Assembly: GCA_032718475.1 (NCBI GenBank)
Contig: JAUCBJ010008061.1
Coordinates: 1-64,000, forward strand
Reading direction: 5' to 3'
Length of the DNA stretch: 64,000 nt
From: Nemertoderma westbladi
Lineage: Eukaryota; Animalia; Xenacoelomorpha
Part shown: positions 27,001-57,344 of the stretch, one piece after another
How the letters are laid out: every line of letters starts with the position of its first letter
Position numbering within the stretch: position 1 is the stretch's first letter
Notes under the pieces: generated by a model
Seen by the model: only the letters and a program-made list of their open reading frames with translations
Databases searched by the model: none
Told to the model about the DNA's origin: nothing
Made by a program: the position numbers and the translations under genes

Positions 27001-29107
27001 GCTGCTTCTTACTTCACTATCTCTTACTTCGCTTCTACGCCCCTCTTGTGGGACATTCTCTGCCCCCCCCCCTCTCTCGCCACTAATCTCCCGTGGTGGG
27101 GCGCCCGTAGCCCCCCCCCCCCCCACTCGCCACTTCTTACTTCACTACCTCTTACTTCGCTTCTACGCCCCTCTTGTGGGGCATTCTCTGCCCCCCCTCT
27201 CTCGCCACTAATCTTCCGTTGTGGGGCGCCCGTAGCCCCCCCCCCCCCACTCGCCACTTCTTACTTCGCTACCTCTTACTTCGCTTCTATACCCCTCTCT
27301 AGTCGACGCACTGTCTCTACTGCGGCTGGGTCTACTCACCCCCGCCTCTCCCTGTGCAACTGCATGGCCTGGCAGGCTCCCGTTGGGTTGACTCACCCCC
27401 ACTACTCCCTGCCTAACTACGTGGCCTTGCAGGCTCCCGTCGGCGTCACTCACCCCTGCTACTCCCTGCCTAACTACGTGGCCTTGCAGGCTCCCCTCGG
27501 GGTCTCTCACCCCCGCTACTCCCTGCGTACTAACTACGTTGCCTTGCAGGCTCCCGTTGGCCGGACCACTTGTGTCTCCTACATTAGTATTAATAGCCCC
27601 ATTATCAATATTATTATTTTCTAAATTATTCAAATTATTTGAATTATTCTGTATATTTAAATTTAAATTATTATTCGAATTATTTTGAATATTCGAATTA
27701 GAATTATTATTTTGTATATTTAAATTAATATTATTATTTGGATTAAATAAATTTAAATTAGAATTACCGGATAAAACATTATTTCCTGCAACGAAAGTTT
27801 GGTTAGGGTTATCTACTACGGTACTATTAATATTAATTTCTTCTAACATATTATTATTCCCCCCCCCCCCCCCCCCGCCCGTATGGTTACACCAGTTCTG
27901 GTTCTGTCGTCCGGTGCCTGTAAGTGGGGTATTAACAAACGTTTCCACTACTTCTGGCTCCTCGTAAATACTACCCGAGCCAGCCTCACTCTCAGATTGT
28001 CCCAACTGCGCCAGTTCTAGTCGGCGCTTCTGCTTGGCCTGATATTGCATAAGCCCCCTTAGCCGGGCATACATATCATCCCGCATACGCTTTCCCACTC
28101 TCTCCTCTCTCTCTATCCTCTCGTAAACTTTGCTCGGCCAACTCTGCCTCTCTCGTCTCCCGCTCTCTACGCTCGTTCTCTACTCTCTCTGCCCTAGCTG
28201 CCTCTCTCACTTCTCGCTCTTTACTCTCGTTCTCTACTCTCATCTCTCGCTCTTTACGCTCGTTCTCTATTTTTGCCTCCCGTTCCTCGCGCTCCCTACA
28301 GTTTCTCACCACCCTCTCGGCCCTCGCTCTACATTCCCTGGCTAACTCTCTCTCTCTTTCTAATAATGCGGTTCCCTCATTCAACTGCCTCTCTAATTCT
28401 TTCTGTTCTAGCGCCGCAATGTCTAATTGACATGCCAGATCTATCTCTAACACCCTTCTTGCTTTTGCGGAGGATGTAGTGGACTTATCGGTCGCGACGG
28501 ACTCCCGTCGCCTCTCTGTCCTACTAACTTTACCCCGCTTTCCGGGGTTCTCGCTAACCGACGAGACCGAATCCTCGGAGTTAACCTCGGGTTCGCCCTC
28601 GTGCGGGTCTGCCCAACCCACTAACTTAATTCCCCTAGCATCCACTAAATACGGCCCTACGTACACAATTTGGGGCTCCATAATCCCGGATCGCCACAGT
28701 TCGAATAGTTCGGTGGCAACCCCCCTCGCTCTCTCACTCGCCAGTTCTCCCTGCCTGAAACGGACTAGATATCTGAAATGTTTATTCGACTCACCTAGCC
28801 GCTGGCTCAACTTCCCCTGGTTTACCTTCTCTCCCCCCTTGGCTTCCCTCAATTGTTTCTTGGTGGCATTGTAGGCCCGTCGAAGCCGATCGCTGGTCCC
28901 GACGTCCTCTTCGCCAACATCTCCTCCTCCTCCCCTGGTTCGGCGTCGTACCAGCGGCCCCACCGTTGCCGTTCCGGTGGGCCGTCCGTCGCCCTCGGCC
29001 TGTGGCTGGCCGGCGACTTCGGTACTTCGACCACCGTCGTGCGTCGACTCGTCCCTTCCTTGTGGTAGACGGCCGCCCTCCGCTTGGACTGCCGGATCGT
29101 CTCTCAT
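24082..29107 (-). pseudogene. gag-protease of element C in several frameshifted pieces
   Basis: IELPPVEPFKFDG capsid region, CQLH..H..C, LVDSGA protease. There is no YxDD RT; only the extreme integrase C-terminus remains (AVGECLCLLEEGAP in another frame near 24085-24135). Confidence 0.85.
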
Positions 29108-29500
29108 CGGCGAATCCGCGGCGAACTCGTTCGAACGACTTTACAAAACTCGGGAAAACAAATCTAATTGGCTGGAGTGGTTTCTCTACCAACAAATCAC
29201 TCGGGAAAACAAACGTAATTGGTTGGTTAGTGAATTTCCAAAATATATTAGTATACAAAGTATATATTAGTACAAAGTTAGTACATTGTTAGTACAAAGT
29301 ACAAAGCATATATATTAGTATAAAATATACTTCTTTGTTACTACAGGTTTAGGTTCATTTATGTTAAACTAATACTAAGGAGCAGTTGTTTCTGAAGGCC
29401 TACTGTATGTATCTGTACTGTAGGTAATCTCAGTATGAGTGTTGACGGCCTAATGTGTTGTGCGGTATATTTGTGGGGATCCTATTAGCATACCTCTGTT

Positions 29501-30349
29501 ATGTCCAGTAGTAATTCCTCAGTTACGTCTGAAATTTCTGATCTGGAGGACTTCCAAAAGGAAAGAAAGAAGCGACTGAATGCGTTAATTGAACGTGTCC
29601 GATCTCATAAGCGATACAAGAAGCCCAAGTCGCCTAAAACAAGAACCGTTAAAGCCCATCATAAAACTATAGACAATTATCAGGGGAATAGAAATGCGTG
29701 TCGTTCTACCCGTAACATAGAAATTGGATGGAAAGTTTGTCAGAATAACGATTTTATTCAAATTAGAACTTCTAAAGGTGGTGGGACTCGAAGTATCCGA
29801 TTTGATAAACAATCTACGATCCGTAATGTTTTGACCACTGGCATCGACCTATTTTATCCAAATGGCGAAAATTCATTCGGAAGGAGAGAAAACTTCGAAT
29901 ATCATTTAATGGACTGGGCCAATAATGTTTGCAGTGAAGAAGACTTAAATAAAACTGTAGCTGAATATTACACTCGAACTGGATTTAAAACTTTGAGGTT
30001 TTACGTAGGATCGCGTTACCAAGAACCTGTCACCAGTGCGACTGAACATACAGCAGGAATGAGTAGTCAAGATCGCAACCCCACAACAACCCATGATAAT
30101 GATGCAAATCGTGGGATCCTTGGTGTAAATGAATCTGTTGCTGTTACACCAACACCGGAAGATTGGGCTGAACCAATTCCATTAACGATCAACAACCAAA
30201 GTGATATTGAAGAAGTTTATAGATCGACAGCAACTGCTGGTAGTAGTTCATACGATTTCCGTCCACGCGATACTGTGCGGGCTCCACATCGTTTTGAATT
30301 TGATGAAAGGGGGGTAAACTTTAAGCCGTCGGCCGACTGCATTAGCTGA
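29501..30349 (+). CDS. Probable N-terminal part/exon of the element's HECT gene
   Basis: 282-aa ORF with IEIGW..QIRTSKGGGTR..LFYPNGENSFG, a motif I recall from proteins upstream of TE-borne HECT domains. Splicing to 30778 is an inference. Confidence 0.5.
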   Translation: MSSSNSSVTSEISDLEDFQKERKKRLNALIERVRSHKRYKKPKSPKTRTVKAHHKTIDNYQGNRNACRSTRNIEIGWKVCQNNDFIQIRTSKGGGTRSIRFDKQSTIRNVLTTGIDLFYPNGENSFGRRENFEYHLMDWANNVCSEEDLNKTVAEYYTRTGFKTLRFYVGSRYQEPVTSATEHTAGMSSQDRNPTTTHDNDANRGILGVNESVAVTPTPEDWAEPIPLTINNQSDIEEVYRSTATAGSSSYDFRPRDTVRAPHRFEFDERGVNFKPSADCIS

Positions 30350-30777
30350 CACCATGTCAGCCGACAGCTATTCCGGATTTCCGAAACAAACACCCCCCCC
30401 CCCCACCCCACCCCCACCGAGTTACTTACGCTAGGGTCAGTAATAATATATTTTATTACTGACACGAGGGTAAATAATGAGGAAAATAACTCAAAATGCG
30501 GGTAATGCGGGAGGGGGGGGGGGGGGGGGGGAGATAAAAATGGGGCTTGGTATTTTTGGGGGAATTTGGAGTCCTCCCATTAAACTGAATTAATTAAACC
30601 TATAGCACATGGTACCATGTTGCAGGGTTTGAGTGTGGGAGAGGATATCTTATCTTTTAGTTATTTATTTATCTTCTTATTTTTATTATTTTTTGAAAAC
30701 AATAATTTACCGGATTTACAGTTATAAAGTTAAAAATTATCAAAATAGACGGCTGTCGGCTTAATGTTTACACCCTA

Positions 30778-31866
30778 TTGTATGAAAGCATTGAACCAAT
30801 AATTGACAATGATAGTGATACAGACGCCCAAATCGCTTATGACCCTAATGAGTTTTTACTTAAACAAGAAAACCTGACAATCAACCGCACTACTATTTTT
30901 AAAGATATGATCGAGTTTTTTAAGCACGAGGGAATTATAGATGTGCCCTTGATGGTAAAGTTCGTAGATGAGATTGGGGCTGACTATGAAGGAATCTCGA
31001 GAGACGCTTATACTGGATTCTGGGAGGAGTTTTTTGACCAAGTGGCTGACGGTGAAAATTACAGAGTACCTGCACTTTGCCCAGAATTTCAGCAGGAAGA
31101 ATGGAAAAGTGTTGGTCGAATATTAGTTAAAGGCTTTAAAGATTGTGGCTTTTTCCCTTTAATGTTGGCACCAGCATTTGTAATTGCTACTATTCACGGT
31201 GAAGATGCTGTAACTAATGAAATACTTTTAGATTCATTCTGCTCATATCTGTCACCTTCTGATAATGATGTAATACAACAAGCCCTTAATTCCACATTAA
31301 ATGATGATGAACAGGATGAATTATCCGATATTTTAGAACGTTTTGGATACCATTCAGTGATACCTAGTCAAGAAAACATGAAATCAGTAATTATTCAGTC
31401 TGCACACAAGCAACTTATTCAACAGAGTAGTTACGCGTCTGAGATGATTTCTACTGTAGCTCGGAGCTTCTTTATCAATGAATTACCCCTTGTAGAATCT
31501 ATAAATTCGCTATATGAATCAAAGAAAGCAACAATTCACTCAGTCCTAGGGCTATTTTCAACTACTATACCATCTACTGAATGTGAGAGCCGATGTTTTA
31601 AATTTTTTCAACAATTTATACGGGCTCAGGATGGTAAAGGTTTAAGAGCCTTACTGAGATTTATGACCGGCTCCGACATTGTTAGTGTTAAAGTGATTTC
31701 TATAGAATTCGTGAAATTAGATGGGGCTGCCAGGCGACCAATAGCGCGTACTTGTGGCCCCGTACTTGTGTTGCCAACGACATATCGATATTACCGCCAG
31801 TTGAGGCAGGAGTTTGAATGCATACTTAAAAACTCACAGGAAACTTTTAAGTTCAATATTATTTAG
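30778..31866 (+). CDS. HECT-type E3 ubiquitin ligase domain (G2E3-like, TE-borne)
   Basis: VKFVDEIGADYEGISRDAY N-lobe start, LLRFMTGS, and RPIARTCGPVLVLPTTY retaining the catalytic Cys of the (A)HTC motif. Confidence 0.85.
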   Translation: MYESIEPIIDNDSDTDAQIAYDPNEFLLKQENLTINRTTIFKDMIEFFKHEGIIDVPLMVKFVDEIGADYEGISRDAYTGFWEEFFDQVADGENYRVPALCPEFQQEEWKSVGRILVKGFKDCGFFPLMLAPAFVIATIHGEDAVTNEILLDSFCSYLSPSDNDVIQQALNSTLNDDEQDELSDILERFGYHSVIPSQENMKSVIIQSAHKQLIQQSSYASEMISTVARSFFINELPLVESINSLYESKKATIHSVLGLFSTTIPSTECESRCFKFFQQFIRAQDGKGLRALLRFMTGSDIVSVKVISIEFVKLDGAARRPIARTCGPVLVLPTTYRYYRQLRQEFECILKNSQETFKFNII

Positions 31867-31939
31867 AATTTGTGATTTATGTACACCTACTGTATATGTA
31901 CGTAGGTATTTCCAGCAGTTTGTGGGTGTTTATAGTACC

Positions 31940-32050
31940 GGTAGTTTATAGAAGTTTACAGTAGTTTATAGATGTTTACAGTAGTTTATAGAAGTTTACA
32001 GTAGTTTATATATGTTTACAGTAGTTTATAGATGTTTACAGTAGTTTATT
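31940..32050. repeat. 20-bp tandem repeat between convergent genes
   Basis: About 5.5 copies of GTAGTTTATAGA(A/T)GTTTACA. Confidence 0.9.
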
Positions 32051-32247
32051 CATGGTTGCAATGTTTGTTTTGTCTAGTAAAGATTAAAAAAGTCGTTATC
32101 TGTGAAACACTTACTTACCTTCTTTAATAAATTTGACTTGGAATATTAATTAAGAACAATTATTACAATTAATAATTGTTAATTAATAACAAAGGAGTAG
32201 CCCCCCCCCCCCCCTTAAAATTCCTATACATAGTAAAAATTCGAAAA

Positions 32248-33508
32248 TCATTCAAGACCCAAATCTTCCAATTGTTCTAGAATTACTGTGAAAGTTGTAA
32301 TTGCAGATTCATATGATTGGGGTGCGGCTGGAACATTTCCCAAGAATGCAAGTTCTAGGAGCTCAATAAAGTCGGGATTACAGTCGGGTGTTACATTACC
32401 AACGATTCTATGCGATATGAATTCCAGTTCCGAATGAGATATAGATAATTCTACAGAACAGTCCTTTTTACCATACTTCAGGACAAGCATAAAGCACATC
32501 GGGGATTCCTCCAATCCAATCAATCTTGCGGTTACGTCGCATTCTGTGTGTGTTCCATGTCTGCATAAAAAAGTTTAGCTGTGTTTGTATTAGTTCAAAA
32601 AAACAATATCTTGCTGTTTGAATGTGGATAGGATTGGTTGTATTATAAAACCCACTATTAACCATACTTCGGAATAGGTCTATCAGAAACTGAACCACAT
32701 TAGATCGCAAATCGCGCCAGAATCGCTCAATTCTAGTATTGTATACGGAACTTCCTGTTATTATAGAATTATTTCGCCTTGAATCGTTACAACTCGACCG
32801 CAGTTCTTTGTGGAGGCGTTTAATAATAACATTTTCGGTTCCGGCATCAACTCTAATTAAGTAAGGGAGCCGGCCGCATTCTTTAAGAAAATTAAAATAA
32901 GCACCAACAACAATTTTAGGATCGTTGTTACTCGGCAAGACATTTAACCAGAGTACTCTCCTTGAGAACCCGTCTATTGCCCCATGAATTGGAAAGCCGT
33001 AGGGCTTTAACTTATCATATCCATCAATATGAACCGTGTGATTAGAACCTTTAGAATGGTATCGCGTACGTCGATGAAGTGTTTTTCGTAAGCGAGATTT
33101 TACGCCTTCAGGATCTACATATTTCAAAATAAGTCTAACAGTTTCCTTAGAGGCATTAATAAACGATCTGGACCATAATCTTTTACAAATTGATCGGTAT
33201 CCACAATTTATACCACCGTACTCAAAAATTTCCACCAATATTCCGGATAATATTTCCTCAAACGAAGTATCGTAATCTCTACTGTGGAGATTCATATTGG
33301 CTTTATATCTTCGTACTGATCTTTCGGATAGAGCAATATTATGAACCGAGTTTAACATAGAGGCTGTCTCCTTAGCGGTGAATTGGAAATAGAAATAGAC
33401 AGTTATCAAATCATTTACAGAAAATCTGTTACAGCCTTCAGAAAATGTAAAAGGAAGATAATTATTTTGAGACATTTTAAGTAATATTCTAATAATGAGA
33501 CAATTCAA
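32248..33508 (-). CDS. IS3/IS481-like DDE integrase-transposase with a frameshift near the C-terminus
   Basis: HTH-like N-terminus and triad HIDGYDK / RVDAGTEN / RIERFW. The frame shifts near 32478 (GIPDVLYACPE to KYGKKDC in ORF 32248-32523). Confidence 0.88.
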
Positions 33509-35311
33509 ATGCAGAATATGTTCAACTCAAAACTGTAATCGGCCTGGCTACCACATCGAATCTTTTTTAAATTGCCCACATTAATATTAATTCACAGGTA
33601 CTGTTTACCGATTCGATAAAAAAAGGTGATCAAGGATACTGCAGCTTCAGTCTGATTGGCTTATTTATAGAAACAAACTTGATTTGATGTTTGTTGGTAG
33701 AGAAACCACTCCAGCCAATTAGATTTGTTTCCCTGAGTTTTGTAAAGTCGTTCGAACGAGTTTGCAAAAGTCGGGAGAACAAAAAAAAAGATTACAAAAA
33801 ACAAACTTGTTTTCCCGAGTTTTGTAAAGTCGTTCGAACGAGTTTACAAAAGTCGGGTGAACAAAAAAAAAAGATTACAAAAAACAAACTTTTGTTTTCC
33901 TGAGTTTTGTAAAGTCGTTCGAACGAGTTTGCAAAAGTCGGGGAAACAAACTTGATTGGATGTTTGTTGGTATAGAAACCACTCCAGCCAATTAGATTTG
34001 TTTTCAGGAGTTTTGTATAGTCGTACGAACGAGTTTACAAAAGTCGGGTGAACAAAAAAAAAGATTACAAAAAACAAACTTTTGGCCGCTCAGGGCCACC
34101 ATACAATAACTTTCCACAACCTGAATTACACAACTTGAATTTTATTATCAGTTTCATTTTCAGCACGGAAAAAGCTATCGAACGACATAAGATACTTGCC
34201 TATTATATCAACTTGAAATTTTGCAAAAGTTGCGCTTTTTGCAGCTTATAAGTGACAGTGACCATATTATAGATGGTCAATTTTGGTGTTTGGGGAATTT
34301 TTCTGTGAAGCACAAACAATTTTATTTTACTTTTTTTCCCGGCAAAAAAGTAAAATAAAATATTTTTGGTGGAATTTCTTAAATTTTATTGCGATGTGTT
34401 GAAAGATCATCGAAATAGAAAAGTTTTGCTAGTAATCTGAGCAAAATCCATTCACTCACTCAAAAGTTATTACAACTTTAGTGTCTGCAAGGCGAACTCC
34501 AAAGCGTAACTCAATATCCAATATTAGTTTATGTTGTTAAGCGGCTCTCTAGTCTCTAGTCTCTCTAGTTACGTAACAAATATTCGATAACACTAAATTA
34601 TTTAATATTGAGTAAGGCGACATCAGGAGTTGAAGAGTACAATAATTTGAATCGCTGTAACTATGGAAGCAATATACTGTAGTAAAATACTACAGTTCAA
34701 TTTATTTTGTAACACTACTGTATATCGCTCTATGTTTTAGAATTGAGCAAAAAAAGTACCAATTTAAGAATAAAATTACGTATTACATGGGAAAAAAACG
34801 TAGAACATTTTTTTTCAATATTCTCTCGACCCTTTATTAACGTCGCTGGCGCTCGGTAAATAAAATGCCTCGATAATAATGAAAATAAAGTTATACTTTT
34901 TTGTGTATGTAATAAATAATTATTTTTCTATGGTTCGAGGGATAATTTTTTGTGATGACATTGTTTATATTATGGAGATATTTTTTTATGAAATTTTTAT
35001 CAATTTTGCTGACTTTAATAGCTTAAACGAAACTACCAGCGAGATCAGTGTGGGTGATTACACTAACTATTATTATCATCGCATGATAATTCCAAGTTTG
35101 AAACTTGTAGATATTTACATTTTGGTATCTCTTTTGCATCGTAAATAAGTTCCTCAAAATAAAGCGCATATCTCGAGATATGGGAATATTCATTAAATCA
35201 ATCAATATATCTATGAATAAGATTGCAATATGTGACAATATTAATATCCAATTAATAATAATAAGTTAATTGTTGTGGGGTGAGTGACGGTGAATTAAGT
35301 ATAATGTATTA

Positions 35312-36560: not shown

Positions 36561-37878
36561 GAGGATCTAACAATTTGTGGGTTCCAGTTGGGAGAGGATA
36601 TATATCAGTAGTATAAGAAGCTATGACATCCGCACAAGGTCACCCATAGCCCATCATTACCATCCATTTCTAGTACTGCATCCAATCAGAAGCCACCATT
36701 TCAACCTTTACCAGTGGTCATTATTATTTCAACCAATCAGATGCCAGCATTTCATTCGTAACCATGGTAACTTCTCAAGTTCCCGCTTATTCCGCTAGAG
36801 GCGTTATTAGTCACCCAACGCTAGTACTGCATCCAATCACCAACCTTTATTTTACAGGTGTTCGGGTGTCTACACTTAGCATCAGGTAACGTCTACTATT
36901 TTTCAAATCGCTATTTTTCAGCAACCAGTATTTTCATATTCACCAACCTTTATTTTACAGGCGCTACGAGTGTCTACAGGTAACGTCTACTATTTTTCAT
37001 TTCGTAATTTTTCACCAGTAACTAAATTTTAATTTCGCAATTTTTCAGATAACAAAATATTCAACTGGGTTCGAACTCGGGACCGTTATAACTCCTCACA
37101 ACTCACCATTCACTCTTCTATCCAACCTCGAGAGAAAAAGGCGATAAATATCCAAGTTATAACAAAATATTCAATCGATGATTGATATGATATGATATTG
37201 CACTGTACAGTACGTAGCCTAACCTAACCATCCAATCGTATACCTACCGTAGCTATGATGGTTACTCTTCCTTTCACTTTTTTTCTCTCCCTCTCTCTCT
37301 TTAGTGTTGTTTATTATTGATTGATTGTTGTCATCTCAATGATTTCCTATCCACCCTCCCACCCAGTACTTGTCCACGTTGCTGTACCATTGTGTTTTGC
37401 CACATTTCTCAACTCACTCTTCCATCCAACCACGAGAGAAAAAGGCAATAAATATCTGAGTTATACCATAGTCATTGAATTCTTCATCTTCATCACTGGT
37501 AGCAGATGTTTATAAATAGCATCTAGTCCCTTAACATAATTACTATAGCATAGAATACATTAATTCGACTATTAATAATAATCAATTTCTTTTATCGTTG
37601 TATATATGTGACTGGTCGGTCAACTAAGTTGAATATAAGTTAGAATGATAGGACTAGCATTGTTCACGTTGCATCTGTTACTCGTTACTGCTATTTCACT
37701 CTCTAACTCACGCTAATAAAATAATTTTAGCTGTACACGTTGCATCTGTTACACGAAACTACTATATTATTCACTGTAAGTCAATCTGTTGTAATAAAGC
37801 AACCATATAAACCGAAGTTTTACATTCTAATAATCATTTATTTAGTTTTTATTTTTCAAAATAGTTTTCATTCTAATT

Positions 37879-38742
37879 ATGGATTTATTTAAAAAAAGTT
37901 CAAACAATACTTGGAAATTTACATGTAATAAATATACCTCTAGTATTGTTTATGGCAAGTACTTTATATTACACTCAAACGATAGCAATGTAACAACATG
38001 CTTCTCTTACCGGGATACACTCTACATTCTAGACACCTTAGAAATATTAATCAACCGACAAAAGGAATCATCAGTTTCAAGAGGTAATATTTATCCTAAT
38101 ATAGAATTTGCAAGAGGAAATTTAAATATTTCCACCTGTGTTATTACTGAAAACGTATATATTCAGAAGCGAGGCAAATGTCAAATTCTAAACAAATCAC
38201 TCATTAATTTATTGCTTCAGAGTAAGACAGAAATATTAGAATTGTTATCACCACCACTCGAAATAATAAGTCAGTGTTCTGTTGTTAATTTAACCAACCC
38301 ATCTTTTGTTGGTTTTGTAAGCAAATATAAAGGAACGGCTTATATGGGACTATGGGAGATTTCAGCTAGATATTCTGATGCTATTGGTCTTAGGTATTAT
38401 AACTTAACAACATCGGAAGTAAATTCATTGTGGTATGAATGGGATTATGAAATTAGTAACGAAGGTGTCTTTTCAGAGCTAGATACGAGCGATAAAGCTT
38501 TATCTAACCGACTTAAAGTAAAAATAAATGTACAAGAAAAAAAAGTAATTATTACAGACAAGGAAAGCAAATATTTACAGTTACATTACGATAAAGACAT
38601 ACCACATATAGAGTTTCTCAACGATATGATGGAAAAGGTTTCATCAACTGATATAGCAGACGGTTTCGCGATTCTATATCAACCAACTTGGAAGTTTAAG
38701 GTTAATAAGTCATTTCCAGAAGCAGTTTCATCCACATTTTAA
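37879..38742 (+). CDS. Unknown Maverick ORF, possibly 3'-truncated by the deletion that removed the pPolB 5' part
   Basis: 287-aa ORF in AT-rich DNA with no recognisable motif. It ends in a TCCACAT micro-repeat junction. Confidence 0.55.
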   Translation: MDLFKKSSNNTWKFTCNKYTSSIVYGKYFILHSNDSNVTTCFSYRDTLYILDTLEILINRQKESSVSRGNIYPNIEFARGNLNISTCVITENVYIQKRGKCQILNKSLINLLLQSKTEILELLSPPLEIISQCSVVNLTNPSFVGFVSKYKGTAYMGLWEISARYSDAIGLRYYNLTTSEVNSLWYEWDYEISNEGVFSELDTSDKALSNRLKVKINVQEKKVIITDKESKYLQLHYDKDIPHIEFLNDMMEKVSSTDIADGFAILYQPTWKFKVNKSFPEAVSSTF

Positions 38743-38758
38743 TCCACATCCACATTAA

Positions 38759-39631
38759 AGACGACTAGCAAAAACTTATATTGAAACAGCTGTCGCGAAA
38801 TTGCTGAATAACTCGTTATTTGGTAAAATGATAGAGAAGATACGAGATCGCTGTAATTTCCGTATCGCTAATAGCAATGAGAAATGCGATCAATTGGTGA
38901 AACGTATAAATCACGACAATTTCATGATTTATAACAATTCCTTATCGGGACACTTATTAGTGAAAGACAGCGTGACACTAGATAAACCAGTCTATGTAGG
39001 TAGTACTGACTTGGATTTGGCTAAATTGGATATGTATGAGCTGTACTATAATAAATTACTACCTATTGAGAAAGAATTAAACTGCCGAATTGAAATTGTA
39101 GCATCAGATACAGACTCATTAATAGGTTGTTATTATAATACATCGCAGAGTAATTTCTTAAAAGCCTTAATTAAAAATAATATTCTAGATACCTCTAATT
39201 ACCCCAAGGATCACCCTCTCTACAGCGATAAAAATAAATCCAGACTCTATTACTGTAAAGACGAGTTGTGCTCGAGAGAGATTAAACAAGCAGTATTTTT
39301 AAGACCAAAATTATATTCAATTTTGGAATGGAATAACAAAAATATACGACGGGTGAAAGTAATAACAAGACCTGTCGTGGATAAAAAAATATGCCACGAA
39401 GATTATTTAAGAGCATATAAGGATAACGAAGAAATTTCCAAGGAAACGCATCAATTTCAGAGTCAATTACACAAAGTGTACACTGTAGCACGAGATAAGT
39501 TTCCTCTCAGCGCATTTGACGATAAACTTTATTGGGTTAATAAAAATCATTCACTTCCCTGGGGTCACTATCAAACAAAGGTTGAAAAACCCGTAAAAAA
39601 AACAATATACCTATTTATCGGGAGCCAAACA
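38759..39631 (+). pseudogene. C-terminal part of protein-primed family B DNA polymerase
   Basis: Motif B KLLNNSLFGK, KPVYVG, motif C ASDTDS, LRPKLYS, LSAFDDK..SLPWGHY. A stop at 38756-58 precedes it; the exonuclease and motif A are absent. Confidence 0.93.
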
Positions 39632-40189
39632 ATGAACTCTCAGATAGTTAATAAGAATGTAAGTTGCCAGCAAGTGTCAGCGATTAATTTAAAAGAATTA
39701 AAAAATCAATTATCTGGTAAACACATACTCAAACCAAATCAGTTTATATATAAGATATTTGGTGCCACATTATTAATATTTAAAAATGGTCGTATTACAT
39801 TATTAGGTAGTGAGTATAATTTCCAAAAAGTAAAAAAGCATATATTTGATAAAACTAGTATTAATTTGATTTTAAAATCTGTTAATTTATGTACTTATAT
39901 TTTTAGTATTAAGTCTGTAGTCTATAGGTTATTGATAAACAATACCGGGTTTTATGTTGTCTTTGATAATGTACAACTTCAAGTTATATATGAACCTGAA
40001 ATTTTTAATAATTATTGCAAAATAAGAATAAATAATACCGTAGTCATTTGCTGCTTTCATACCGGTAAATGTACTTTAATGTGTTCACCTAGCAAATTTC
40101 ACATTTATTATCCTATATTTAGTAAACTGGTTAATTATTTATTAATGTTTGGTGTTGTGACTTTAGGTGTAGAATATATTGGTAATTAG
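39632..40189 (+). CDS. TATA-binding-protein-like two-repeat domain, in frame with pPolB, with its own ATG at 39632
   Basis: Repeat 1: QIVN..INLKEL..ATLLIFKNGRITLLGS. Repeat 2: SVNLC..YEPEIF..VVICCFHTGKCTL. Compare TBP TALIFSSGK and YEPELF..LLIFVSGK. Length ~185 aa. Confidence 0.75.
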   Translation: MNSQIVNKNVSCQQVSAINLKELKNQLSGKHILKPNQFIYKIFGATLLIFKNGRITLLGSEYNFQKVKKHIFDKTSINLILKSVNLCTYIFSIKSVVYRLLINNTGFYVVFDNVQLQVIYEPEIFNNYCKIRINNTVVICCFHTGKCTLMCSPSKFHIYYPIFSKLVNYLLMFGVVTLGVEYIGN

Positions 40190-40417
40190 AAGGTGAAAAT
40201 TAAACATTATTATTTTTCAATCGATCTATCGGTAGTTAGGGAAAACTAACCTCGTTTGAATAAGCATGACTCTCACAGACTGACTGCGTGCCTAGCCGGT
40301 AGTAGCTGCGAGGCTGGCTGCGAGGCTGACTGCGAGGCTGGCAGCGATGCTGACTGTGTGACTAGTTGCGAGGCTGGCTGCGAGGCTGGCAGCGATGCTG
40401 GTCGCGAGGCTGGCTGC

Positions 40418-41217
40418 GAGGTTGACCGCATCCCAGCTGGGAGGCTGACTGCGCGCACATCTGATTGTAACTGGCTCACGATATTGTATACAATGATTTA
40501 GTTTGTTACTGCAGGTACTGTTAAATTAATACTGTAGTACCGGTACTGCAGTACAATGCTAATCAAAGGAAATCAGTATGCTCTATCTGACTATACTGTT
40601 ACAATAACAGTGACAGTACTGCAGTACTGTATTGTTTGGGTAGGGGATCTAATCCCTGTATGTGAGACCCATGCGTGCAATCCAGGTCATGTCAGCAGTA
40701 TGCTATTGCATCAGATTACTGCTGTACTGATACCAGTAGACCACGACTACAGTGTTGGAAGTGTAAAACACTACAGGTACTGATAAAGTGGATGACAGTT
40801 GTGGATACGAGCTGCGAGGCTAGCTGTGAGGTTGACCGCATCCCCTCAGCGTGGCTGACTGCGTACACATCTGATTGTAACTGGCTCACGATATTGTATA
40901 CATTGGCTTAGTTTGTTACTGCAGGTACTGTTACATTAATACTGTAGTACCGGTACTGCAGTACAATGCTAATCAAAGGAAATCAGTATGCTCTATCTGA
41001 CTATACTGTTACAACAACAGTGACAGTACTGCAGTACTGTATTGTTTGGGTAGGTGATCTAATCCCTGTATGTGAGACCCCTGCATGCAATCCAGGTCAT
41101 GACAGCAGTATGCTATTGCATCAGATTACTGCTGTACTGATACCAGTAGACTGCGACTACAGTGTTGGAAGAGTAAAACACTACCGGTACTGATAAAGTG
41201 GATGACAGTTGTGGATA
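40418..41217. repeat. 410-bp tandem direct duplication preceded by GCGAGGCTGGCT repeats
   Basis: 40418-40807 closely matches 40828-41217. Confidence 0.9.
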
Positions 41218-41598: not shown

Positions 41599-42171
41599 CT
41601 ACTGTACATCATTCATCACAGTTATTTCTTTCTGTTTATCACCTGTCTCAGTTAATCGTTTCGTTACATACCCTCCAATCCTTTTCGCTGAGCAGTAATT
41701 CAAGCAGCTATCACCATCTTTGTGAAAACTACATTTATCTTCTACAGTAGTTAATTTATCATGGAAGGGGCATGGAGTTAAATAATTGTAATATAGTCGA
41801 AATATTCCCAATTTGTTCATCGATTTTGGAGCGTAAACATCAAGTTGGGTATTTAATATTGCGGCTTTCATCAACCCAAATACATATATATTATATTTAT
41901 TTTTTAATTGTCTCTTCATGTACTTTTTAAAGTCATCTTGCGAAATGTCGCCGTAATCCCAAGGTAAATGTGAAGACATGTCGCGTAAATTGTTTACGTG
42001 GGCTTCATCTAATGCTGATAAGTTAATATCAGGAGGTCCTTTAATTAAAAACGTCTTTATATTAGTTTTACTGTATTTAGAATCGAATATAGCAAATTCT
42101 TTAAATACTACCGGATATTCCTTATTGTCTATCTTATAATATTGAAAATCGACAAAAATAATATTATCCAT
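41599..42171 (-). CDS. Maverick accessory protein, DEDD exonuclease-like
   Basis: IIFVDFQ..VFKEFAI N-terminus, LPWDYG, and a Cys/His tail (CSFH..YCS). Confidence 0.55.
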   Translation of the reverse strand: MDNIIFVDFQYYKIDNKEYPVVFKEFAIFDSKYSKTNIKTFLIKGPPDINLSALDEAHVNNLRDMSSHLPWDYGDISQDDFKKYMKRQLKNKYNIYVFGLMKAAILNTQLDVYAPKSMNKLGIFRLYYNYLTPCPFHDKLTTVEDKCSFHKDGDSCLNYCSAKRIGGYVTKRLTETGDKQKEITVMNDVQ

Positions 42172-42202: not shown

Positions 42203-42655
42203 TTACAACGTTTGTTGGTTTATTTTATAATAATTAACAAGCCATTTATATAATATTATTTCATTTATTTCCACATTATTTGTAAACGCTCTCATTGGAT
42301 AGTTTGTGTGAATTCGATTTACCAAGTAATAAAGACAGTATAACCCACATGTGGTCCTTCTAGGGTCTTGAAATTGTTTGCGGGTAGTACACCACCTTGC
42401 TGTATTTTTCTCAAGCCATTTTTCGATACATCTGTTTGGATATTTTGGTCCAAACGAATTAAATAATTCAGCATCATTATCTCGTATATATATAGCTACC
42501 CCTTGAACACCCGGCAGATGCTCTTTATCGGTATTTACTATAAACCCATAATCTCTCTGCTTATTATTATCTAATTTAGGTAATTTATTAGATGGAAATG
42601 CCCCCAAATAGTGACCACCCACTGCAAACATATCAAGGTCCTCTGTAGATAACAT
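42203..42655 (-). CDS. Adenain-like cysteine protease, probably inactive
   Basis: IVNTD..PG-VQG-VA (normally PGxHW), FNSFG (normally FDSFG), FQ..TTCGLYC. Confidence 0.88.
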   Translation of the reverse strand: MLSTEDLDMFAVGGHYLGAFPSNKLPKLDNNKQRDYGFIVNTDKEHLPGVQGVAIYIRDNDAELFNSFGPKYPNRCIEKWLEKNTARWCTTRKQFQDPRRTTCGLYCLYYLVNRIHTNYPMRAFTNNVEINEIILYKWLVNYYKINQQTL

Positions 42656-42657: not shown

Positions 42658-43832
42658 TTAATCGATACGTATTTCTTTCCTGCTATTTAAACTTAATGAT
42701 TGATCATAAATATTAAAAACGATTACATTTATGGTCTCAACCAACGGTTCGGCAAATCTTAATTTTAATTGTCCATTAGTATGTATCGATGGTTGAGGAT
42801 CTCTAACATAGCCGTCGGCGGTTAGGTCCCAGGAAATGAGTGGACAATTACCTAAGTAAGTTTCATGGTCTATATTATTACCTCCATAACCGTTAATATA
42901 TGTATTAATGTTCTTCATTAATTGTGTATACTCAAAAATGTATGTTCTATCTGTAAAATTAGGCTCGTATATTACACCACCTACTGGAAGACCGTCTACA
43001 ATCAGTTCCGCGCGTCTAAGGTTAAAATGTTCAAATTTCAAGGGATTGCTAGTTAATTCTCCCAAATATGCATTATTTGTTATAAAACCAATAATAACTA
43101 ATTTGGGTTTTTTACCATCAAATATGTTTGTTTGGGTGTAATTTGTGGTTTGAGCGGGAATAGTAAATGTAGTAACTTCTTTTTTTTGAAATTGATATTC
43201 AATATCGTAACTCTCTAAACCTTTTAGGTGACTGCTTTCTATTACGGGATTAACCTCCATTCTAGGGATTAGGATCTTTACTTCATCTAATTCTAACCGA
43301 AGATTTGTCACAGCGTTTGCGTTTGGAGTGATTTTAAAAATAAACGAATTTGATACTTTTCTAAAATGCATTCTTAAATCATACCCAGGTTGTATTATTT
43401 TACTTTCAGTATCAAAATCAATCGTCAATCCACTTACAAATTGCATTTGTTTACTAAAGGCATCGCCAATAGGATGCGCGCCAGGATTAATTTCATTTCC
43501 GTGTTCGGATAAAGGCTGATGAAAGCCCCCAGCCCCCAGTAGCCCATTTTTAGATTCGTATGTTGTAAATAGTAAATTGGATAAGTACGACTTGTAGAAA
43601 TAATGGTTATTGCTATTTTCAACCTGCTTCTCATTAAGGTCTATTTTAATATCACTCCACATAGTCCCAGAAGGGTAATTCAACATATAAATATGAGAGT
43701 TTTCAAGTCGTCTATCCCACCGTACAGTACATTTTGTAATTAATAACGCATCTTGCAGTTTCGTATAGAATTCATTGGATCTTGGTACAAGGAATGTGAC
43801 TTCCCTAGACTCGCTTCTGAGATTAGATACCG
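42658..43832 (-). CDS. Major capsid protein, 3' part
   Basis: Open through to the insertion site. PKLVIIGF..NAYLG..NPLKFEHFNL and GQLKLRFAEPL..INVIVF are typical of the Polinton MCP. Confidence 0.85.
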
Positions 43833-44380
43833 TGTTAGCTTATTCAATCCCGCTAACACCCCATAAAGTTATAAGCCGATAAGCAATATTAGGAGCCACG
43901 AGATTGGGTAATTAACCAACTTGTGCCATCCCAATAAGAATGGGAAGGAAGCACACAATAGAGGGTCAGGGGCCAAACCCCTAACCCAGAGAGAACAGGA
44001 GGAGTGAACGGGAACACTCCAAAGGGCGCCAACAAGGGTATCAACCAATCAGAGGGGGGAAAGGCATCGATTAGGTAGAGTAACAAGGCCAACCGTGCAA
44101 TATAGCCACTTGGCAGTAATATTACCAGTTCAGTTATCTCAGTGCAATACCGGTGCTAGTTAGGTTATTACATAGTTTTAGATAGGGAAGGACCGGGACT
44201 TTAGTTACCGTATCCCGCCTTCCGTATACGACAATATTATCTCATACTATATCTATATCTATATTCACATGTTATATTATATACGACAAACAACATCAGA
44301 ACTCGTTTCACTCGTTATACACGGCGGGGACGCGTGAACTAAAACCGGATAAACCGGGATCCCTCTTGGATCCCGTCACA

Positions 44381-44389
44381 GTAACTAAA
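44381..44389 (+). promoter_or_regulatory. Non-tRNA primer-binding site GTAACTAAA, complementary to the LTR 9-mer at 44200-44208
   Basis: Lies immediately after the 5' LTR, lacks TGG, and is the exact reverse complement of TTTAGTTAC. Confidence 0.7.
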
Positions 44390-44463
44390 CCCTTCGGCAG
44401 TAACCAAACCAGCTGCCGCCCTAGATAAACTTAACCACTAGCCACCGAAATCTGCAGAAGAGG

Positions 44464-47400
44464 ATGAGTCAGTCAGGTGACACGACACCGACGCGGACCC
44501 CGGACGAAGACCTAACGATCCGCGAGGCCGCAACCAGGCGATACAGGCCCACAACGCCGGACCCATCGGTAACGGGTCATCTGGCAGTTCAAGACGAGGG
44601 GAGCCTGGAACAAGAGGTCGAGCCAAGAGGAAGGGAGAGCGAGACGGGGGGAGACGGAGATGAGTCGACACGGGACGGAGATCGGCGCACCGATGTCGCC
44701 GGCCAGCTACAGGCCGAGGGCGACGAGCGGCCCACCGAAACGGCGATGGTGGGGCCGACGGTGCGACGCCGGACGCGTAGAGACGGAGGAGACATCGGTA
44801 CCGATGTCGCCGGCCAGCTACAGGCCGAGGGCGACGGACGGCCCACCGGAACGGCGACGGTGGAGCCGCCGGTACGACGTCGAACCCGGAGGGACGGAGG
44901 AGAGGTCGGCGACGAGGACGTCGGGGTTTCAGAGCGACTTCGACGGGCCTACAACGCGACCCGGAAGCTAATGAAGGACGCCAAGAAGAAAGGGGCGAAG
45001 GTAGACGAGGTGAGACTGAGAAAGCGACTAGGTGAGTCGGATAGACACTTTAATTACCTAATACGTTTTGGGCAGAGAGAACTAGCCGAGGGGAGAGCAA
45101 AAGGGGTTGCCGGCGAACTGTTTGAACTATGGGAGTGTGGGAGTATGGAACCTAGTGTAGCGCCAGTGTACATAGGGCCATACTTGGTCGATGCCCGGGG
45201 AGTAAAATTAGTGGGTTGGAGGGGACCCGAGGGGGGCGAATCCGAGGTTAACCCCGAGGATTCGGCCTCGTCGGTCGGAGAAAGTTCCGGGAAGCGGGGG
45301 AAAGTTAGTAGGTCGGGAAGGCGGAGGGGGTCCGTCGTAACCGATAAGTCTGCTACATCCTCCGCAAAAGAAAGAGTGGTGAGAGAGATAGGTGCCGCAT
45401 ACCGTCTCAACATGGTAGAACAAGGTCAGAGGGAAATGGAGGAACGGTTAGAGGAGGGGAGAGTGCGGTTAGAGAGGGAAGCGGCATTGATTAGAGAAAC
45501 CGGAGAGAGGGCCAAAAGGGCTTTGAGAAGCCTTAGGGAGTGTGAGGAAATAGAGGAAAAGGAGTGTAGGGAGCGTGAGGCAAGGGAGGACAGGGAACGC
45601 AAAGAGCGTGAGGCAGAACGCAAGGAACATGAGGCGAGGAGGGAAAAGTAACGCAAGGAACATGAGGCGAGAAGGGAAAAGGAACGCAAGGAGCGCGAGG
45701 TGAGACGAAGGGAGAGCGTTAGGAGTGTAGCGGAGTCGGCCGCCCGGGACACCCAGGAGTGTGAGAGGAGAATGGCAGAGGCTGAACGAGAGCACAAGGA
45801 ATTAAAGAGACGCCAGAGTGTGCTTGCGGAACATAAGATTAGACGGGCGCACGAGCTGCAACTGGTGCGAGCGTCGCCGTCTGAAAGCGGGGCCGGCTCG
45901 AGTATTTTTGGGGAGCCGGGGGCCGTAGATACATTTATTGATACCCCACTGACAGGGACCGCGCGACAGACCCAAAACTGGTGTGACCGTACGGGCGGGG
46001 GGGGGGGGGGGGGGGTAATGACAATAATGATACAGTAGACGTTGTTAATGATGATAGTACCGTATGGGACAACTCTAATCAAACCTTTATTGCAGGAAAT
46101 ACTTTGCCTAGTGGTAGTAATTTAAATTTAAATCAGAACAATCCTAATATTAATGTAGAAAATAATTCTAATATTAATGTAATTACGCAAAATAACTCAA
46201 ATAATCAAAATAATAACCCAAATTCGAACCTACAAAATAATTTAAATAACGCGATTACGCAGAATAATTCAAATAATTTAAATAATGATCCAAGCCCGAA
46301 TTTACAAAATAACTCAGATAGCGTAGTCGCGCAGAATAATACAAATGGTTTCGTTCCAAGCGAGCAAATCAATTCTGTTTCCAATATGGGTGCTATTAAC
46401 GTAAACACGTCGGACGTGTATAGCCAGGCAGATGAGGGCCTGGTAGGCCGCGTAGTTGGTAGGCAGGGAGTAGGGGGCCTGGTAGGCCACGTAGTTGGTA
46501 GACAGGGAGTAGAGGGCCTGGAAGGCCACGCAATAGCAGGAGGAGAAGCGGGGGTGAATAGACCCGACCGCGGTAGGGTTGATGTGTCGACTAGAGAGGT
46601 ATATAGTAGCGGGGTGAGAGGTAGCGAAGTAAAATGTAGCGAGTGGGGGGGGGGCTACAAGGGCCCCACAACAGAGAGTTAGCGGCGAGAGGGGGGGGGG
46701 GGGGGGGGGGGCAGAGAGTGTCCCACAGCCGTCAGCGGACAATGCGCGGGCCGAAATAGGTAAACCGCAACGACCGGCGACGGAAAGTAATAGGGGGATT
46801 GCGGATATCCCCAGCGGCGTGCGACCGAGCAGAGAGAGACGGGTTGACGTCGCGAGAGGGCGGACGAAGCGTCGAGCCCGATCAGAGGAAGGAAGAAGAA
46901 CAGTGGGGTTTAACCGGGAGGTCGACGAGAGATCTCACGAGCGGGAATATTCCACTGATAGGAGAAGAAAGGAAGACAGTAGTAGAAGTATCGCCGCGAA
47001 CGATAGAAGAGCGAGGACGGATAGCGAGCCGTCGATAGTCGAGATGAGAACGGAGAGTCAGTGGGGTCGGACTCCGGGAGATTGCCGTCGCCCCGGAGAG
47101 ATGCGACCCGGCGAGGCGCACTACGCGCCGAGAGAGGGGTACACAATGTATCGGTACGAAGATGAGAACAGTAGAGAGGGGGGTCGAAGAGAAACTTTCC
47201 GACGGGATATACCTACCGATCGAGAATACGGTAGCCGCGGGGAGGATTATTCGAGAAGAATAAACTTCAATCCCGAACAACACATGCAGACTGTAGGACA
47301 TACTGTAGGCCTTACTGCACATACCATAGGCCATACTGAGAGAGGCAATGTAGGCGATAGGATAGCGTGGACAACGGGATTAAACCTGGAAGTCGCGGAA

Positions 47401-50400
47401 TACATACCGGCGGGTAGGCCAGAAACTGATAGGCCTATACCGGTACCAGCACAGCAGTATGACTACAGCATGCAGGGACATAACATATACCCAGGGGAGG
47501 GGGGAATTATTGCGGATAGGTGCATGGGCCCCAACATATTAACATCAACCCCAGTACCAAACATACCGGTGGGGGGGGACAGGGTGACATTCCCCCATCA
47601 CAATATCAACAATATACCCCGATAGGAGCAAGAACAACGAGACCCTTGGATGAGAATAAGTCGTGTGACACAGAGATATGGAGGGGGCCGCTACCCCCGA
47701 TGACATACCCAAGTCAGAGAAGATCGAGAAATAGGACGGACGAACCGCACCAGACAGCGGAAACTATACAGCACCCGTCGAATCCATTGGAAGCGCAGGC
47801 GATGGGGATGGCCACGTTGATCGATGCGTTGAAAACGAGGATCGAGCTACCACCAGTGGAACCATTCAAATTCGATGGGAGTAGGCCGGAAGAATATCTA
47901 CAGTTTCGGCGCATGTATAGTAACGAAATACTAACAAAAAACTTGACGCAGGCGGAGTGCCTAAAGTATCTACAAGTGTACATGGGAGGCCCAGCATACG
48001 ACATCGTGAGGCAATATCAAGGAATAGAGGGCGGCTTCACGACAGCATGGCGGGCACTGGATAGGGAATACGGGCACCCGGCCAAGATCATCAGGCAGAC
48101 GCTGAGGGGCATAACATCGGGTGGCCTGCAGGATAATCCCGTTAGCATTAAGACGTTCGCTAACAAAGTCGAAAAGGCGCTAATCGTGCTGAAGACGCTA
48201 GACGCGCCGTACGAGCTCAATGCGTCCAACAACATCACCACGATAGCGCAGGCACTACCAAACTGGCTGCGCAACAAGTGGAGAAAAATCGCCTTCTCTA
48301 CTCGAGATAAGAAGGGTGCGGAACCGGGTTTAGAAGAAATGTCAAACTTCTTAAACTACGAGGCTGAACTAATAACTGACCCAGTCTATAGCGAAGACAG
48401 CCTGGGAAAGGGACCGAAGACAGACTACCATAGACCGAAACAAGAGCACAACACATCAAACGCATTACCGAGACTCAGGCAATCATTGCCATATGCAGCG
48501 ACGCAGGGGACTGCAAGTCCACAGCTAGCCGAGGATAAGACAACATCATGGAACGGACAGGGAAACAATAATAACACGAATAAACATAACCCCAGTACGT
48601 CCAATCGGCAAAACCCAAACAATAAGAATAGTAGGGACTTTGGTACGAACGCAACTGCGATACGCAATGCACTGTATAAAGAGGGCTACGACCCAAAGAG
48701 CAAATGTCAGTTACACGCAAATGCGCTTCATCAAACTATGAACTGCAGGTACTGGCAGGCGCTACCTAGGCAAGATCAGATAGATTATGCGTTCAGCAAT
48801 AAAATCTGCTCGCGATGTGTAATGAGTGGACATAGAGCAAGGGAGTGCAAGGAGAAGCCAATGAAATTTGGTCAAAGGAGAGGCCAAACGATGGCGACGA
48901 GCACAGTAGGGGCGAAGAAGAGAGGAACGGTGCTACTTGGAGTAGTACCAGTACGAGTGATCGGGGAAGGCAATCGATCAGTAACAACACTAATGCTGGT
49001 TGATAGTGGAGCTGCCTTCACATTAGTCGAGGAATGGGTGGCCGAGGAGATAGGATTGAGAACGAGGCCAAGCAGGATGGCGGTAACAACCATCTCTAGC
49101 AAAGATGAGATCCTGGAGATGAGAACAGGACGGTGCGCAATTGCAGCAGTGGCACCAGGATGCGACTATGGGGCAACCATCGACCCCATTCAAGTGATAG
49201 AGTCAATTAATATCAATGCCAGGCGACCAACCAACATCGAGGTTGAGCAGTACAAATTCCTGGACAACATTGACTTCTCAATCCCAGACGTGGACGTTAG
49301 GAAGGTATCCATCATAGTAGGTATGGACTGCCCAACAGCCCACGAAAGAATGCAAACGGTCTTCGGCGAAGACAAGCAGAGTGACCCGGTGGCCATATTA
49401 ACACCATTCGGGTGGACGCTGAGTGGTCCAATCAAGAGTAAGATACCATTTAGGATGTCGGAGACATCAGGATGCATGTTCGCGGGAACAATGCAGGAAA
49501 TGGGTGATGAGGGAGCAGAGGAGCAGCTTAAAAGACTGCTCAGACAGGATTTCGAGGGATTGAAAGAAACCGGGGTCGGGACCTCGGTGGAAGACAAGCA
49601 GGCTCTACAAAGCGTGGAGGAATCAATGACATGCGATGAGGGACGGTATACTATAGGAATGGTATGGAAACTACCGAAGATACCGCTGCCCGACAATAGG
49701 GGGATGGTACTCACGAGACTCCGCAAGCTGAAACAAACACTAAAACGGAGCCCCGAGAAGAATGAGTACATCCACAGGACGATTAAGAAGTACGTCGAGA
49801 AAGGATGGGCCGTGGAGTTACCGGTCGACGAGCCGAACACGGATAGAACATATTACCTGCCACTGCACGTGGCTTTAGATCCAAAGAAAGGTAAACTAAG
49901 GATGGTAGTCGACGCATCGGCAAAGACCGACGGAAAATGCTTAAACGATTACCTGTTAGAAGGCCCAAATATTTACAATTCGGGCATAGAGGTGTTACTT
50001 AGATTTCGAAATGGGAAACACGCCTTCACGTGTGACATAGAAGGCATGTTCAACCAAGTCCGTGTAACGGAAGAAGATAGCGACAGTCAACGCTTCTTAT
50101 GGTATAACGGCGAAGAAGAACCGCCGATAATACCAGCATATAAGATGATAGTACAGAACATGGGGGCCAAGTCGTCTTCATTTACGACGACTATGGCAGT
50201 GAGAGACACAGTAAAGGGGAAGGAAGATAGATACAGCAGTAGGGCCGTCGATATGATTCGACGCGGCTTCTACGTAGACGACGGAATGGAGTCTGGAAAT
50301 ACGGTTAAGGAGATACTGGATACAGGGCGCGAGGTTCGCGACATCCTAAAGGGATCCGGCTTTAACCTGACCAAATTCCAATCCAGTTCGGAAGAATTTA

Positions 50401-52915: not shown

Positions 52916-53029
52916 CAGAGTTAGAGAAAAGTTTAGTCGTCCAAGTTTTGGACTGAGGGGGGTGGGATTGAGGGCGAGACGCCCTTCCCACAAACAAAAT
53001 AATAAAAATAAAAAAAATAGTACATGGTA

Positions 53030-53490
53030 GGTACGCAGTTAGTAGGCAGAGACTACGGGAGTTAGTTAGTAAGAAGGTACGTAGTACCTAGTTAGTTAGT
53101 TAGTTAGAAGGTACGTAGTACCGCCAGTCAGAGAGTTAGTTAGAGGGTACGTAGTACCTAGTTAGTTAGTTAGTTAGTTAGAAGGTACGTAGTACCGCCA
53201 GTCAGAGAGTTAGTTAGAGGGTACGTAAGTACCGTTAGTTAGTTAGTTAGGAGGTACGTAAGTACCACCAGTTAGAGAGAGTTAGAGGGTACGTAGTACC
53301 GATAGTTAGTTAGAGAGTTAGAGGGTACGTAGTACCGATAGTTAGTTAGAGAGTTAGAGGGTACGTAGTACCAATAGTTAGTTAGAGAGTTAGAGGGTAC
53401 ATAGTACCGATAGTCAGTTAGAGAGTTAGAGGGTACGTAGTACCGATAGTTAGTTAGAGAGTTAGAGGGTACGTAAGTACCGTTAGTTAG
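53030..53490 (+). repeat. Tandem array of GGTACGTAGTACC mini-hairpins with TTAG/GAGA spacers
   Basis: About 13 units of 30-40 bp downstream of pol. Confidence 0.9.
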
Positions 53491-53978
53491 AAGAGAGGGA
53501 GTAAGAGGTAAAAAAGGGGATATAGATATAGGTATTAGTTAGCAATTAGTAGAGAGAGGGGGGCATATGAATACAGCTGGATAAATCGTGTGGCCACACG
53601 ACGCATACTGCTGTACTGCATAGGCCCACAGAGTAGGCCAGAATGTGGATTAGAGAATAGAATAATCCATAGGCAGTAGTAAGTAGTGGGACAGTAGAAT
53701 CAAAGTAAATGGATAAATAAATAAAATAGGGCTGAAAATTGTAAAATAGTGGCAACACAAGGGAAGTTATTCTAGAACATAATAAAAGTAACGGACAGAA
53801 ATTGTAAATTACGCTCATTTACTAGCTTCAAAATTAATTAGGAATAATTTAGGTTAAAAGGCGCAGTTAAGTAGAAATAGGCCATTATCGAACTGTACAG
53901 AACATCCTAGATACATCACTCATCTGTATTGCGCCTTGGTAAGGCACCACCTTGCAGGTGAGCGAGTGAACGTTCGGA

Positions 53979-55247: not shown

Positions 55248-55598
55248 TCTCTAGGGCAAGAATTGGGATGGACAGTGGGATCGCCGAAACAGTCGACGTC
55301 GGGGTTGCGAACGATGCCCATACCAGCGGGCGCCGAGGGCGACCAACCGCCAAGGAAGTTAAGGGAGCTAGAGTGATGGAGAGCTACGGGCGAGAGCCAA
55401 GGCGGGATGGGACATAGTGGATCCATCGGGATACCGGGATTGGAGACACTACCAGAAGAGGAGGACGACGACGACGAGTTCGGAGAGATGCCGCCCATCG
55501 AGAGGATAGGCCACTCGGACACGGACTGGGTTGGCGGAAGGGTGGTGACGGCCAGTGGGGCGAGGGCCTTCTGGAACAGATCCGGCAAGCGGACCTAG

Positions 55599-57259: not shown

Positions 57260-57344
57260 GGTAAATTGTTTCATAATGCTTTGCTTTAAATTCAGTCTGT
57301 ATTGGCTGTGTAGAAAATAAATCTAATTCCTTAATAATTGACAT
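57260..57344 (-). CDS. Major capsid protein, 5' part
   Basis: MSIIKELDLFSTQPIQTE..YP reads in frame into 43832-42658 after removing element B and one TSD copy (1260 nt, 419 aa). Confidence 0.85.

Follow-up and report, generated by a model that had tools for sequence, protein, structure and literature searches.

TBP-like proteins have been described in several kinds of DNA viruses. In the large dsDNA viruses, according to the accessible part of PMC7221094, from which we also take the roles of the Glu pair as the TFIIB contact and of the N-lobe basic patch, the Glu signature is variable (about 40% kept), and nearly all such viruses possess a TFIIB of their own. The beta- and gamma-herpesviruses have TBP mimics, KSHV ORF24 among them, which are proposed to direct host Pol II to late promoters (10.1101/2025.08.25.672222, in the portion available). 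The closest described case comes from the MELD viruses with an adintovirus-like PolB, in which a gene is labelled TBP in the legend of Fig. 5 of PMC8502044; the same label stands in the preprint of that paper, as far as both are openly available. Beyond this one legend label, our literature search, which left subscription papers largely outside, found no study of a Maverick TBP, and the accessible text of PMC11131425 mentions neither TATA nor TFIID. The premise of the original prediction made for this locus, that TBP is not part of the standard Maverick gene set, holds, though an adintovirus-like virus already has the TBP label in the available part of PMC8502044.

Here we analyze a window of 64 kb (the whole stretch of DNA considered, from Nemertoderma westbladi), in which a TBP-like open reading frame (ORF) resides in a broken, high-copy Maverick/Polinton. 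Like the cellular TBP (PF00352; PDB 1ytb, 1cdw, 2z8u), its product has two repeats, three of the four intercalating Phe, the first Asn, and the YEPE loop with both Glu; unlike it, the window protein has only 15-19% identity in structural alignments, a first stirrup that is three residues shorter, Ser in place of the second Asn, and both Thr replaced, and its family is without the basic N-lobe helix. What it has in common with the MELD viruses is that a TBP-like gene accompanies such a polymerase in a linear dsDNA virus of middle size; the accessible part of PMC8502044 offers a label only, mainly from non-animal datasets, with no residue analysis, promoter, or function. Similarly, the TBPs of large dsDNA viruses are diverged, keep the DNA-binding Phe, and have lost the eukaryotic N-lobe signature (PMC7221094, same portion), but the family of the window protein keeps both Glu in 62 of 63 members, and no TFIIB was found in the two elements searched, which are incomplete. 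The resemblance to KSHV ORF24, for which the available part of 10.1101/2025.08.25.672222 proposes a TBP-like role on host Pol II, would be an analogy of function rather than demonstrated homology, and the window protein consists of the core alone, with an intact TFIIB loop; the herpes-style late-gene feature, a variant TATA before virion genes, is present in a related locus (L012) and was not found in the window. What matters here is a TBP encoded by the element in which the TFIIB loop is retained, together with a candidate box in a related element. A polymerase-TBP fusion is not supported.

The Maverick element in the window

Several hallmarks of a Maverick/Polinton are present in the window: a protein-primed PolB (pPolB, as a remnant), a retroviral-type integrase, a packaging ATPase, a protease, and putative capsid genes (Table 1). 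From the layout, the polymerase/TBP block on the + strand and the virion block on the - strand would belong to one element. No pair of terminal inverted repeats was present among the 25 longest of the 157 inverted repeats, and the element exceeds the window. We take the gene at 42,658-43,832 to encode the major capsid protein from its size, its position, and a motif, and the ORFs in 57,498-59,580 are presumably one core-protein-like and two minor-capsid-like.

Table 1. Features of the element, with positions in the 64-kb window.
Feature	Position	Strand	Evidence
TATA + initiator-like pairs	37,806-37,836; upstream of 42,171, 42,655, 63,840	+; -	
ORF, 287 aa, preceded by a TATAAA + initiator-like pair; adjoins the polymerase remnant at its end	37,879-38,742	+	ORF list
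pPolB C-terminal remnant	38,759-39,571	+	42% to P0001 residues 971-1,245
Linker, open in the TBP frame in the window copy; frame-changing indel in sister copies	39,572-39,631	+	Sister-copy contigs
TBP-like gene, 185 aa, own ATG, two TBP repeats, shortened first stirrup	39,632-40,189	+	Pfam, profile and fold matches
Tandem repeats, comprising a 12-nt array and a 410-nt duplication, between the two blocks of genes that converge here	40,305-41,217		
ORF, 190 aa, TATAAA + initiator-like pair upstream	41,599-42,171	-	Weakly like L012:11,226-11,690, E 0.007
Adenain-like cysteine protease	42,203-42,655	-	Peptidase_C5 under the cut-off (E 0.044); matches in 5 related loci, best E 1e-13
Probable major capsid gene, 3' part (5' part at 57,255-57,344)	42,658-43,832	-	L029 match E 6e-23
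BEL/Pao LTR retrotransposon within the capsid gene; 548-nt LTRs, 6 mismatches; 5-nt target duplication	43,833-57,254	+	
Three small virion-module ORFs	57,498-59,580	-	Related loci
Retroviral-type integrase	60,049-61,137	-	rve 41 bits vs cut-off 32.6; best locus L012, 39%
Packaging ATPase	61,776-62,459	-	Pox_A32 E 0.0013, below cut-off; related loci E 1e-36
RING-like ORF and another ORF without label; element runs off the window	62,646-63,840	-	

The BEL/Pao insertion at 43,833-57,254 is young, with LTRs 99% alike, and the window also contains older copies of this family, at about 6,300-9,000 and 19,000-29,300. The RING-finger-like ORF beside the ATPase (62,646-63,347) has a Pfam E of 0.04, which is below the cut-off. 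Elsewhere in the window, at 29,489-33,526, an integrase (rva_4) gene converges on a HECT-domain ORF, with a further unlabelled ORF, an arrangement that suggests a transposon equipped with a ubiquitin-ligase domain.

A diverged TBP gene behind the polymerase remnant

A 476-aa open frame spans positions 38,759-40,189 (+), with the SLPWGHY motif of the polymerase at 39,551-39,571 and a separate ATG at 39,632. The 185 aa that follow this ATG had been read as a divergent, element-encoded TBP with two repeats (one of them marked by YEPEIF..CCFHTGKCTL), and our results bear this out: the quoted motifs are present, TBP is the top fold match, and the related Maverick L012 has a separate TBP. The proposed search with the Pfam TBP family (PF00352) on 39,632-40,189 gives 33.2 bits against a cut-off of 22.9 (E 4.9e-8), in two stretches, and a profile-profile comparison of the window protein with TBP reaches a probability of 99.4 (E 1.8e-21). 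TBP clusters account for 29 of the 30 Atlas matches, with a top score of 0.95 and a recognition value under the reliable level. Searches with the single sequence yielded close relatives in none of 45 candidates, and none in viral contigs, metagenomes, or the PDB. The TBP-like ORF is a real Maverick gene, which is unusually diverged.

When a profile built from 79 TBPs of archaea and viral contigs was run against 35 related loci, most of which are fragments, a TBP was found in only one of them, L012, a count that weighs against the promoter-factor reading. This 19-kb locus has pPolB, a free-standing 169-aa TBP 5.5 kb downstream of it, an ATPase, and an integrase, and is the best match of the window integrase and the second best of the window polymerase. 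The part between its pPolB and TBP (L012:11,783-14,128) carries accessory genes, KilA-N/DUF3627 and phospholipase A2-like. With an alignment of the two TBPs as the query, 91 of 436 candidates proved to be relatives, 99-207 aa long, in a search that covered proteins of 92-324 aa only. The identity of the window protein to this family of short TBPs is 18-29%; the family profile, built without the window protein, gives it 31.7 bits (maximum of 9.1 in 500 shuffles), and the canonical TBP profile gives 21.0 bits (maximum of 6.1, also in 500 shuffles). A phylogeny against host TBP/TRF2 and NCLDV TBPs had been suggested, and this was obtained in part: a tree of 49 rows, made with a quick method and with no animal TBP or TRF2 included, does not place the window protein, on the side of either host or virus. 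It sits there on a branch of length 5.3, which counts against reading it as a promoter factor. A second short TBP-like group (P0196-P0211), in which the N-lobe is further shortened, is set apart in this tree by a branch whose support is 95.

Conserved residues and predicted fold

The residues of the window protein were compared with those of 63 family sequences and 66 canonical TBPs. It keeps N7, F50, E121, E123, F125, and F142. The retention of the TBP Phe residues, as originally claimed, stands for F50, F125, and F142, which fall in columns where Phe is invariant in all 66 reference TBPs and where 62-63 of the 63 family members keep it, but not for the fourth Phe, which is not clearly kept; in the first stirrup the loop is three residues shorter and the Phe is displaced, with F38 nearby, in a column that is variable within the family. 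At each position of the TFIIB-contact Glu (E121 and E123 in the window protein), the residue is kept in 62 of the 63 family members. The intercalating Phe and the Asn and Thr positions are DNA contacts of TBP.

Several changes are common to the window protein and the family: Val at position 9 has become Asn, three residues of the first stirrup are deleted, the second Asn is replaced by Ser, and a Thr is replaced by Cys. At the 19 columns that separate the family from canonical TBP, the window protein agrees with the family in 7 (three of these being one gap), with canonical TBP in 2, and with neither in 10. Together with the profile scores (31.7 versus 21.0 bits), these 7 versus 2 columns suggest that it belongs with the short TBPs of the L012 group. 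It has also lost 7 of the 20 positions common to the family and canonical TBP, a result that argues against the promoter-factor reading. The basic N-lobe helix is absent in the family, with a median of 1 K/R and 4 D/E compared to 6 K/R in L007; the window protein has 4 K/R.

An AlphaFold2 model from a 76-row alignment has a mean pLDDT of 70, a pTM of 0.59, and values of 81-93 in the N-lobe; it is not independent evidence because its alignment contained TBP-like relatives, and the single-sequence prediction has a pLDDT of only 37.7. In a fold search with the model, TBP was the top match (E 3e-6, TM about 0.4) and made up all 40 listed of the 44 matches at E<=0.001, and a second search also placed TBP first (Z 9.7, rmsd 7.2 over 154 residues), the best non-TBP match having Z 6.8. 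In the saddle comparison, TBP is the best match over 154-161 residues, with rmsd 6-7.5. Among the BFVD structures, no large-virus match to the window model stands out, the best TM being 0.3-0.4. In the structure prediction that had been proposed for 39,632-40,189, TBP heads both searches. Both lobes of the modelled protein are TBP-like, and the closed saddle is putative, with TM of about 0.4 and pLDDT below 50 in the linker (residues 91-109), which weighs against the promoter-factor reading.

Proposed role and candidate promoter boxes

We consider it rather probable that the window gene is a Maverick TBP of the free-standing type that works as a promoter factor recruiting host TFIIB and Pol II, and that nothing but damage or an assembly error has likely joined it to the polymerase remnant. 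Its saddle would bind an AT-rich box and bend the DNA via the kept Phe; the changed Asn, Thr, and Val positions and the shorter first stirrup would move the box preference off the host TATAAA; and the kept Glu pair would dock host TFIIB, bringing Pol II, so that the virion and integration genes would be expressed. Host TFIIB is proposed as the partner because the search for a TFIIB gene in the two incomplete elements gave no match to the TFIIB family in the 26 ORFs of the window or the 12 ORFs of L012. The redirection of host Pol II to element promoters, as put forward in the original prediction, is plausible and consistent with the kept TFIIB-contact Glu.

The heptamer CATAAAC occurs in L012 12 times on the coding strand of L012:11,153-18,662 and never on the other strand (shuffle mean 1.9, maximum 6, n=100). 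It is found within 120 nt before 6 of the 12 L012 ORFs, including the ATPase and the integrase and excluding TBP and pPolB, at a distance of 11-73 nt from these six genes, and the best 7-mer did as well in 1 of 300 null sets. CATAAAC is a candidate target box of the L012 TBP. In the window, CATAAAC precedes none of the 8 virion and integration genes, and TATAAG precedes 2 of the 8, a count that was as high in 190 of 1,000 shuffles. None of eight box patterns tested before these 8 genes was significant (the best, 52 of 1,000), which speaks against the promoter-factor reading, and degenerate 8-mers did no better than shuffles. What the window does have are pairs of a TATA box and an initiator-like motif, 30-36 nt apart, at 4 of 13 genes (null mean 0.14; 0 of 1,000 shuffles), where the spacing was picked after seeing the data. 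These pairs are possible early promoters read by host TBP, and they weigh against the promoter-factor reading.

The same data can be read in another way, which we regard as unlikely: the gene would still be a separate gene of the element, but its product would be a decoy for host TFIIB-type factors, or would bend AT-rich termini or origins in replication or integration. A DNA-face much changed next to a kept Glu pair would suit such a protein, as would the position of the TBP gene directly behind pPolB in the window lineage and the presence, before window genes, of ordinary TATA + initiator-like pairs and of no private box that we could find. It is harder to reconcile with the TATA variant of L012, whose restriction to the coding strand and to 11-73 nt before six genes fits promoter use, and with the three intercalating Phe positions, kept in nearly every family member (62-63 of 63).

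The promoter-factor reading may be taken one step further, as a tentative proposal that we hold to be possible and somewhat short of probable: a clade of animal Mavericks could have a minimal transcription switch of its own, in which a TBP core by itself, its DNA face rewired, recognizes a TATA variant private to the elements (CATAAAC in L012) and connects directly to host TFIIB. If true, the lone-TBP switch would be a third design beside the TBP/TFIIB pairs of giant viruses and the TBP mimics of herpesviruses, and Mavericks could then be expected to express their genes in stages, as viruses do. The timing of the capsid and integrase genes in these elements becomes testable with a protein of 170-185 aa and a short motif, and the element TBPs would be natural specificity variants of TBP.

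Sister copies and constraint on the TBP gene

Parts of the stretch were found in 5 of 7 listed sequencing runs (X1 to X5), 4 of them from one organism, with X1 and X2 from the same sample. The summed contig depths of 1e4-1e5 point to an element in many copies, although they are not a copy number; in X4 the depth is only 2-17. Within the TBP ORF, the listed indels are of 3 or 9 nt, and the 35 listed differences fall mostly on third codon positions (third 22, first 10, second 3; p 3.3e-4). These 35 are part of the 50 on a diverged X5 contig, span 39,684-39,976, and are what remains of 40 listed (61 in total) once 4 that lie outside the ORF and 1 from a different contig are set aside. As judged from codon positions, protein-level constraint on the TBP ORF is shown between copies.

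This constraint bears on whether the TBP gene of the window sub-lineage has outlived its function and is now a relic under relaxation or decay, which we find quite improbable. An identity to the family of only 18-29%, the loss of 7 of 20 shared positions, a poorly modelled C-lobe, and a window copy that is broken elsewhere too would all be expected of a relic, but the third-position excess between subfamilies, the restriction of indels to in-frame ones, the 185 codons that stay open, and the very high depth in three studies would not.

The joining of the polymerase and the TBP

The polymerase part of the frame corresponds to the last ~270 of ~1,200 residues (residues ~940-1,245 of relatives of 1,151-1,259 aa), so that three quarters of the full length are lacking, and with four relatives as queries no N-terminal pPolB piece was found in the whole 64-kb window. 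Among the relatives of this polymerase, named ones come from coral, aphid, and sea spider. At 38,739 and 38,757 there are loose ends; these, beyond which other copies continue differently on each side, indicate a probable deletion junction at ~38,740-38,758 between the 287-aa ORF and the polymerase remnant. This ORF (37,879-38,742) has no family in Pfam, NCBIfam, Atlas, or the 35 related loci; its depth in sister copies is high, and there it is seemingly longer.

A comparison of sister copies had been proposed for deciding between a fusion and a separate gene, and it speaks against the fusion insofar as the linker of the sisters contains an indel that is not a multiple of three, carried by 19,343 of 45,829 of the depth in X1, 3,444 of 5,125 in X2, 2,621 of 4,032 in X3, and 59.2 of 59.2 in X5; the remaining linker depth in X1-X3 may come from short contigs or from window-like copies. 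Two X5 contigs bridge the linker with the frame-changing indel, and a third X5 contig, which represents a diverged subfamily that X4 contains as well, has a linker length difference that is again not divisible by three. Among the 191 long pPolB relatives, a TBP domain was found in 0 of the 120 listed (stored Pfam and TBP profile; 51-60% query coverage). The related pPolB genes stop 1-26 codons past the matched end in 32 of 33 cases, while the window frame continues for 204; this count comes from 35 loci, with L042 and L044 left out because their match ends early. A full-length polymerase in frame with TBP was seen neither in the sister copies nor in the relatives examined.

Because of the truncated polymerase, the linker indel, the unfused relatives, and the stops of related polymerases, the fusion is best read as an accident of the window copy, and the joining most likely arose in one broken copy by mutation or assembly error; this agrees with the second option of the original prediction, an accident, which fits both the sister copies and the relatives. 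A genuine, selected pPolB-TBP protein that tethers the polymerase to AT-rich termini is very improbable, since the open frame of the window, the possibly window-like part of the X1-X3 linker depth, and the existence of tails on pPolB, such as that of L043 with its primase C-terminal domain, are set against a polymerase of which only a remnant is left, an X5 linker depth that is entirely out of frame relative to the window, no fusion in the 120 listed relatives, and a separate TBP in L012.

The sole exception among the 33 polymerase ends, L043, has a primase-like tail: at L043:8,546-10,000, the pPolB frame extends 485 codons into a primase C-terminal (PriCT-2) domain.
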